From positions 88,578-112,577 of the forward strand of contig JAPNVD010000007.1 of the NCBI GenBank assembly GCA_026627305.1: DNA of 24,000 nucleotides, written 5' to 3'. The stretch comes from Sulfolobaceae archaeon (GTDB lineage: Archaea > Thermoproteota > Thermoprotei_A > Sulfolobales > Sulfolobaceae). The position numbers were made by a program, and so were the translations under genes. Under the pieces are notes generated by a model, which made no database searches, had not been told where the DNA came from, and was given only the letters and a program-made list of their open reading frames with translations. Positions within the stretch are counted from its first letter, which is position 1. Every line of letters starts with the position of its first letter. Of this stretch, positions 12,837 to 14,310 are shown piece by piece.

Positions 12837-12946
12837 GAAACTTTTAACTCTTACCATTTTCCGCGCTTTGGCCCTTCATCATAATTCAGCTTAGTTAGGC
12901 TCTTCACCACTAATTTTATCTTTTTAACTAGCTATTAAAGCAAATT

Positions 12947-13093
12947 ATGGCTTGGAAAGTTAAGTGCACTTCATGTAATACTGAATGGATAGCTAATATA
13001 AGCTTTGATATAAGCAAGCAGAAATATTTGTACCACTACTGCAAAGTATGTAAAAGAAATACTTTTAACGAAATAATTGAATACATTGAATAA
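12947..13093 (+). CDS. candidate 48-aa zinc-ribbon miniprotein (not in ORF track)
   Basis: My translation gives MAWKVKCTSCNTEWIANISFDISKQKYLYHYCKVCKRNTFNEIIEYIE*, with a CxxC-N21-CxxC pattern. A T/A-rich element (12915-12927) lies 20-30 nt upstream of the ATG. There is no other support. Confidence 0.35.
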   Translation: MAWKVKCTSCNTEWIANISFDISKQKYLYHYCKVCKRNTFNEIIEYIE

Positions 13094-13095
13094 AA

Positions 13096-13147
13096 ATGAT
13101 GAACCCGGAAAATTTTGAACCTAAATGAAATAACCTGTCTCGGCTGA
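13096..13147 (+). ncRNA. C/D-box sRNA candidate (2'-O-methylation guide), 52 nt
   Basis: Its parts are: C box AUGAUGA (13096-13102), 12-nt spacer ACCCGGAAAAUU, D' box UUGA (13115-13118), 6-nt loop, C' box AUGAAAU (13125-13131), 12-nt spacer AACCUGUCUCGG, and D box CUGA (13144-13147). These are the canonical archaeal box order and spacings. Confidence 0.6.
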
Positions 13148-13149
13148 TC

Positions 13150-14310
13150 TCATATTATATAGTCTCCGTTGTTGATTTTATCTGGTATGTATGTAAATGC
13201 TAAAAACTGTAGACCTTTACTAGCCATAGCCTCTATTTCTAGCTTTGCTTTCTTCTTCAAGAAGATATCTATCTCTTTCTTCCACGACTCTGACTTAAAC
13301 CAGGGATAATTCATTATCTCTTGAGCTCTTTTTATATCAGCATCTTTAGCCTTAATTATAAAGTTCCTCCTTTCCTGCTCCGTTAAATACGCCTTTTTCT
13401 TTCCATCACCGAAAATGTCAACCATTGAAACCCCTAGGAACCTAGCGTTTGGGGTAGCTAACCTCTCACTTTCATATGAGAGATTTATTGAACCTATCCT
13501 GAAAACGCTATAAATATACCATCCGTAAGGATCAGCATCTGTTAAAATGTAAACTGGAAGCTTTAGCTCTTCATTTAATCTTCTAACGAATCTCCTTGTA
13601 GCTCTATCAGGCTGTCCAGCACTGGTAACTAGTATCGCCTTGTATTTTTTCCAAAAACCGACTCTATGAAGTTGCTGAAATACCGCATCTTTCTCCACAA
13701 CAAGGACAAACTCGGCATTTATGTCTATAAAATCGATTAAGTCTGGAGTTGGCTCTATAGAATAAGCACCATGTCCTAATTTACTCAGATCTATAACATC
13801 GTTCCCGCTTCTTATCCTCATATCCCCAACTACCTTTCCTTTCTCCTTGCTAAGAATCAACATATCTTCTCTTAAAAGTGACGTAAAAACTTCAATATCT
13901 ACAATCACTGAATCCGACTCTTTCTGCTCATCCCACGTATTCTCTTCATGAGTCTTACCCGAAGGATCCTTTATAACAATTGAATGTTTCCCTCTATAAT
14001 AAAGATCCCTTATCGTAGGATATTCATTGTTTATTAACGCATCGTAAATTATGCTAGCCATTAATGTCGTTTGCATAAATCTTTTAGCCTCATTTAAGTC
14101 TAGAAAGTTCCTCTTCAGCTTAGCTGAACCTAATAGTAATAGTTTCTTGTTTTCATCGTAGATTGTGTTAGATAAAGTACGTTTTGGTATTTCCATTATA
14201 GGAGGTTCTCCTTGATCTATAGCTTCCTTCAACTTTAGAAACTTTTGTCGTAATATCTCTGCAGCCTTCTTTCTCGCTTCTATATCAACCTTTGAAGTGA
14301 GCTCAGTCAT
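13150..14310 (-). CDS. top6A: DNA topoisomerase VI subunit A (Spo11 homologue)
   Basis: It has the catalytic-Tyr region TIRDLYYRGKH and the Toprim motifs VVEKDAVFQ and LTDADPYGWYI. It overlaps top6B by 4 bp. Confidence 0.95.
   Translation of the reverse strand: MTELTSKVDIEARKKAAEILRQKFLKLKEAIDQGEPPIMEIPKRTLSNTIYDENKKLLLLGSAKLKRNFLDLNEAKRFMQTTLMASIIYDALINNEYPTIRDLYYRGKHSIVIKDPSGKTHEENTWDEQKESDSVIVDIEVFTSLLREDMLILSKEKGKVVGDMRIRSGNDVIDLSKLGHGAYSIEPTPDLIDFIDINAEFVLVVEKDAVFQQLHRVGFWKKYKAILVTSAGQPDRATRRFVRRLNEELKLPVYILTDADPYGWYIYSVFRIGSINLSYESERLATPNARFLGVSMVDIFGDGKKKAYLTEQERRNFIIKAKDADIKRAQEIMNYPWFKSESWKKEIDIFLKKKAKLEIEAMASKGLQFLAFTYIPDKINNGDYII

Follow-up and report, generated by a model that had tools for sequence, protein, structure and literature searches.

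The closest described system is Sac-sR3 of S. acidocaldarius, a box C/D small RNA (sRNA) encoded at position 1117684 of the plus strand and represented by 2048 RNA-seq reads (Dennis et al. 2015, BMC Genomics 16:632, Additional file 1, PMC4644070). It is also listed as a 57-nt RNA in a small-RNA set (Daume et al. 2017, mBio, Table S1, PMC5539422), with an L7Ae RIP-seq peak of 4.21, read here as log2 enrichment (p 3.5e-18; Daume et al. 2017, PMC5539422). Its targets were given as "23S G28713," as printed, for the D guide and "NP" for the D' guide (Dennis et al. 2015, PMC4644070). Because Iho sR411 of Ignicoccus hospitalis is listed in the same source with the target 23S G2873, we read the Sac-sR3 entry as a typing error for G2873. 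Alignment position 2880 in that work is E. coli C2606 (Dennis et al. 2015, PMC4644070), which makes the target, G2873 of the alignment, equivalent to E. coli G2599. Other C/D sRNAs, namely Sac-sR13 and the pan-archaeal guides aimed at 23S U/C2880 (E. coli C2606), address the same helix 93 strand of the peptidyl-transferase region, but they carry a different guide sequence, have a target nucleotide 7 nt downstream, and form a separate gene family.

The window analyzed here, a 24,000-nt stretch of a Sulfolobaceae metagenome-assembled genome (MAG), encodes at 13096..13147 of its plus strand a box C/D sRNA that, on the basis of its boxes, synteny, and homology, we identify with high confidence as an ortholog of Sac-sR3, predicted to guide methylation of the G2599-equivalent and having a D' half without a target. 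A first-pass annotation had presented it as an unannotated RNA, which is correct for this MAG, but it is not new: it is the ortholog of a published RNA, whose family is already described and is missing only from the annotation of this genome. Read directly, 13096-13147 (+) is AUGAUGA-N12-UUGA-N6-AUGAAAU-N12-CUGA, the archaeal C-D'-C'-D order, exactly as first claimed, and both guide spacers are exactly 12 nt, the length (~12 nt) typical of archaeal C/D sRNAs. The C box AUGAUGA (13096-13102; consensus RUGAUGA) is followed by the D' guide ACCCGGAAAAUU (12 nt, 13103-13114), a D' box UUGA that is a degenerate CUGA (13115-13118), a 6-nt D'-C' loop ACCUAA (13119-13124), a C' box AUGAAAU that is a degenerate UGAUGA (13125-13131), the D guide AACCUGUCUCGG (12 nt, 13132-13143), and the D box CUGA (13144-13147). 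The C box RUGAUGA and D box CUGA are thus those of an archaeal C/D sRNA, and the internal D' and C' boxes, separated by their short loop, keep the same degenerate forms in orthologs. A terminal stem around boxes C and D would comprise at most 1 base pair, and the mature RNA probably extends a few nucleotides to either side of the boxes, as judged from the 57-nt length of Sac-sR3. Directly upstream on the same strand lies an open reading frame for a 48-amino-acid CxxC...CxxC zinc-ribbon miniprotein (miniORF; 12947..13093, stop included), of which the stop codon TAA (13091-13093) is 2 bases from the C box. Downstream, the convergent top6A gene (13150..14310, minus strand) has its stop codon (TCA on the plus strand, 13150-13152) 2 bases past the end of the D box, the spacing already noted in the first-pass annotation. 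With 2-base gaps on both sides, the sRNA fills the whole intergenic space.

The element shares with Sac-sR3 the order of the boxes, an identical 12-nt D guide and D box, the same predicted target (23S G2873, E. coli G2599), a D' guide without a predicted target, and a locus that follows a zinc-ribbon miniORF, converges with top6A, and has the sR14 gene ~250 nt away on the other strand. The published Sac-sR3 sequence was identical to the element found in family loci L010/L011. Several details differ: (i) the C box is AUGAUGA here and AUGACGA in Sac-sR3; (ii) the 12-nt D' guide ACCCGGAAAAUU corresponds to the 11-nt GACCCAAAAUA in Sac-sR3; (iii) the D'-C' loop, of 6 nt in the element here, has 3 nt in Sac-sR3; and (iv) the S. 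acidocaldarius miniORF stops at the UGA of the C' box, whereas the one here stops 2 nt before the C box. Expression and L7Ae binding are documented for the S. acidocaldarius RNA. In Iho sR411 the D guide, GGACCUGUCUCAAC, is homologous, keeps the register, and is likewise predicted to target 23S G2873. The two RNAs differ as follows: where the guide here has G, that of Iho sR411 has A, which matches U instead of C in the 23S at E. coli 2596; the Iho sR411 D box reads CCGA; the core CCACGGG of its D' guide is absent here; and it lies in another genomic context.

The MAG is 79.5% complete. A search of its contigs for 23S rRNA found none assembled, and the only 16S rRNA in the assembly is a fragment at a contig end (G000 C18:1-1129); tests of guide-target pairing therefore rely on the rRNA of relatives. 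The sense strand of the 23S rRNA in five relatives with a full 23S reads GUCG(C/U)GAGACAGGUCGG. In the four of these five that belong to the same family, guide bases 13133-13142 (ACCUGUCUCG) pair with 23S CGAGACAGGU through 10 contiguous Watson-Crick pairs without G.U, and the outermost D-guide bases, 13132 and 13143, face mismatches. As the threshold for a target we took at least 9 contiguous pairs with rRNA or tRNA together with Watson-Crick pairing of the guide base five positions before box D or D' (D+5 in the case of box D); the D+5 base, the C at 13139, forms a C-G pair with the second G of GAGAC in the family 23S, the MAG's own 23S being unassembled. The paired stretch corresponds to E. 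coli 2596-2605, on the strand with A2602 and beside helix 93 (the S. acidocaldarius 23S stretch with the target GAGAC is GUCGCGAGACAGGUC); the target G is three nt 5' of A2602 and is given as two nt from A2600. The first-pass annotation had placed the D guide antisense to this A2602-containing stretch and the D+5 nucleotide at the second G of GAGAC, approximately G2599; both placements stand, the first through the 10 pairs with the 23S of relatives and the second as the same prediction published for Sac-sR3 (Dennis et al. 2015). Two of its details need correction: the target given there, UGAGACAGGUU, reads CGAGACAGGU in the family 23S, and the single G.U pair it described is a G-C pair, since the family 23S has C at that position. 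Exact complements of the D and D' guides in the MAG itself were limited to the gene.

By the box-D+5 rule, fibrillarin is predicted to 2'-O-methylate the G equivalent to E. coli G2599. The genome encodes fibrillarin (PF01269, 343 bits) and Nop5 (PF01798, 268.7 bits) in adjacent genes on one contig and L7Ae (PF01248, 119.7 bits) on another. Under the established archaeal C/D sRNP model, L7Ae would bind the C/D kink-turn and the C'/D' kink-loop, two Nop5-fibrillarin dimers would assemble on the RNA, with exposed ends being trimmed, the D guide would pair with nascent 23S, and fibrillarin would be expected to methylate the 2'-OH of the nucleotide that faces D+5. A literature search for published Gm mapping at this 23S position in any Sulfolobales found none, and methylation thus stays a prediction, also for Sac-sR3. 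That result would suit an alternative in which the sR3-type sRNP is mainly an RNA chaperone holding the helix 93/A2602 strand, with methylation incidental or absent; chaperone roles for archaeal C/D sRNAs have been proposed (review PMC7994747), and selection for pairing in its own right would fit the fact that the conserved guide bases are precisely the 10 paired ones. We nevertheless regard a predominant chaperone function as quite improbable, because the register to box D is strict in all orthologs, including Ignicoccus sR411, while pure pairing needs none; the same G is always at D+5 and Watson-Crick paired; and the fibrillarin gene is present.

Comparative data from the family and the class favor a guide that acts on 23S rRNA. 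A protein search found top6A in all 41 sampled genomes of the family, representing 14 genera including that of the window, and in 30 of 30 fetched family loci a homologous C/D element, encoded on the other strand, closely follows the top6A stop, so that the synteny of the sR3 family (miniORF, sR3, convergent top6A) includes the element throughout. Together with the anatomy and the identity of an ortholog with Sac-sR3, this synteny supports the first reading of the element as a canonical archaeal C/D sRNA. In an alignment of 28 distinct family orthologs, the UGA and GA columns of the C box were invariant, and the UGA of D', the UGA of C', and the D box were invariant or nearly so (the D box is CUGA in most family genera and CGGA in one). 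The ten guide bases ACCUGUCUCG were also invariant, guide positions 1 and 12 took all four nucleotides, the D' guide differed between genera, and the downstream flank was unconserved. The check proposed in the first-pass annotation, conservation of the boxes but not of the flanks in relatives, was borne out across the 30 loci, the 10 guide bases being kept along with the boxes. An invariant run of 10 nt with free ends is the pattern that selection for pairing to 23S would produce.

For the wider class, the search pattern was the C'-guide-D half-mer UGA-N5-CCUGUCUC-NN-CNGA, which occurred once per genome in 161 of 201 sampled genomes (about 80%), as opposed to 2 matches for a reversed control pattern. 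A proper upstream C box was present in 11 of 12 copies sampled and, counted over the non-family copies inspected, in all but one of 22, and one non-family element (in G085) was identical to Iho sR411. The element here carries the D guide of the sR3 family, ACCUGUCUC(G/A), at its fixed distance from box D. Family guides end in ...CUCG opposite a 23S C in all 39 family genomes of the 201-genome sample; the non-family guides listed end in ...CUCA opposite a 23S U in all but two cases, and one of these two is no C/D RNA. On the rRNA side, a pattern search of the same 201 genomes returned CGTCGCGAGACAGGT in 34 of the 34 same-family genomes that gave a match, and the 23S-type matches listed outside the family all read CGTCGTGAGACAGGT; G057 and G065 each also hold a second copy with G at that position. 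The change between G and A in the guide against C and U in the 23S is a compensatory guide-target change. As this co-variation represents a single phylogenetic event, it is supportive evidence and not a statistical demonstration. Overall, the comparative data support real selection for pairing at the peptidyl-transferase center and probably also for methylation there; that the guide to the G2599-equivalent has tracked the C/U change in 23S is a modest addition to the published data.

The same comparisons bear on a function in cis, in which the element would chiefly serve as a kink-turn that L7Ae binds at the 3' end of the miniORF mRNA, or as an antisense to the 3' end of top6A, controlling those genes and guiding nothing in trans. 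L7Ae does bind k-turns in S. acidocaldarius mRNAs and regulate their translation (PMC5539422), and the sRNA abuts or overlaps the miniORF stop and is 0-3 nt from the top6A stop in most loci. A cis element, however, would not require 10 invariant nucleotides that are complementary to 23S and change in step with it; the same guide is found in other genomic contexts outside the family; and the ortholog accumulates as a discrete 57-nt RNA, all of which makes a mainly cis-acting role very improbable.

The frequency of such motifs was assessed with a loose and a strict C/D pattern, which gave 12 and 4 matches, respectively, in the 1.9-Mb genome versus 0 matches for both in six second-order Markov simulated genomes, indicating that a base composition of 37% G+C does not produce the motif by chance. 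The idea of a fortuitous box-like sequence in an AT-rich spacer with no RNA made from it, for which the only point is the lack of an Rfam match at the gathering score, can be dismissed almost outright given the simulated genomes, the conservation in syntenic loci and across the class, which refutes it, and the detection of the ortholog by both RNA-seq and RIP-seq. The Rfam covariance models, proposed in the first-pass annotation as a check, did not recover the element: at the gathering score, the whole window yielded tRNA only and no C/D family. Membership in the sR9 or sR5 family was considered and rejected, as the scores at E<=10 in the element region were far under the gathering thresholds (sR9, 17.6 bits against a cut-off of 36; sR5, 9.2 against 40). 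Rfam appears to have no model for the sR3 family, and the missing gathering-level match explains the missing annotation and is not evidence against the gene. The practical value of the identification lies in annotation, namely an RNA gene between two protein genes that escapes both Rfam and automatic pipelines. The present picture of C/D sRNAs is left unchanged by these findings. Elsewhere in the genome, three more matches to the strict pattern (G000 C37 (-) 9205, C40 (+) 43802, and C40 (-) 91313) are probably other unannotated guide RNAs.

No target could be named for the D' spacer in the first-pass annotation, which agrees with the "NP" entry for Sac-sR3 (Dennis et al. 2015) and with the results here. 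Against the rRNA operons of five relatives, the MAG's own partial 16S, and 28 of its own tRNAs, the D' guide gave no match above the null: its best rRNA/tRNA score was 9.5, inside the range of 9-11 obtained from 200 shuffled guides. The few 1-mismatch complements of the D' guide in its own genome were not above the estimated chance number. Elsewhere in the family, the D' guides of genus g16 pair over 9-10 nt with 16S CUUAUUGGGC, which may, as a lead only, reflect an ancestral D' target. Many non-family orthologs (loci L041-L047 and L053-L062) have the common D' core CCACGGG, which can form 7-8 pairs with 23S CCCCGUGG, a site that lies about 525 nt 5' of the D target. This 23S site we take to be near E. 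coli 2063-2070, in the A2058-G2069 neighborhood. The match is not unique, as other CCCGUGG sites exist, and the D' guide in the window pairs with none of them. Family 23S keeps CCCCGUGG, and the family D' guides no longer pair with it. These pairings hint, again as a lead only, that the ancestral sR3 may have been a double guide with both targets around the peptidyl-transferase center. In the lineage of the window, the D' half is best read as an orphan, its boxes being kept for a symmetric RNP.

The relationship between the sRNA and the miniORF is close throughout the family. In 26 of the 30 family loci (the window and L009-L037), a CxxC...CxxC miniORF of 48-58 aa extends up to or into the sRNA; in Pfam and NCBIfam it gives sub-threshold zinc-ribbon matches only. 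Measured from the first base of the C box, its stop ranges across family loci between 6 nt upstream and 27 nt downstream. Depending on the genus, it just precedes the C box (as here), falls within it, or coincides with the UGA of either the D' box or, as in S. acidocaldarius, the C' box. In several genera the miniORF therefore reads through the C box and the D' guide, making the D' spacer coding sequence there as well. Overlap with the 3' end of an open reading frame is common among archaeal C/D genes, the stop codon often falling in a box, and it may give rise to orphan guides (review PMC7994747). The miniORF is likely the host transcript or promoter donor of the sRNA. An A/T-rich TTTTTAA at 12921-12927, ~23 nt before the miniORF ATG, fits a leaderless layout, and the sRNA is probably transcribed from the miniORF promoter. 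A TATA-like TTTTAA at 13063-13068 (+), within conserved N-T-F-N codons of the miniORF and ~30 nt upstream of the C box, could be an internal promoter. The sRNA would accordingly be made either as the 3' tail of the miniORF transcript or from this TTTTAA. It is also conceivable, though unlikely, that the miniORF and sR3 constitute one bifunctional, family-wide unit in which the D' guide doubles as C-terminal codons in several genera. If so, L7Ae/sRNP assembly would couple to or compete with translation of the miniprotein, and the fast-changing orphan D' guide would be a by-product of the overlap, with no hidden target behind it.

The window also encodes a second unannotated C/D sRNA at 12860-12908 (-), upstream of the aIF5A start, which is the ortholog of Sac-sR14. 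Its layout is GGUGAAGA / GCCUAACUAAG / CUGA / AUU / AUGAUGA / AGGGCCAAAGCG / CGGA, and 29 of the 30 family loci carry an sR14 ortholog on the strand opposite sR3. L7Ae RIP-seq showed strong enrichment of Sac-sR14 (Daume et al. 2017, PMC5539422), and sR14 was listed without a target in a study in which only rRNA was scanned (Dennis et al. 2015, PMC4644070). The invariant D guide of sR14, GGGCCAAAGC, is exactly complementary to the anticodon stem-loop of tRNA-Gln(UUG) (G000 C5:78013), which, by the D+5 rule, points to wobble U34 of this tRNA as the predicted target.
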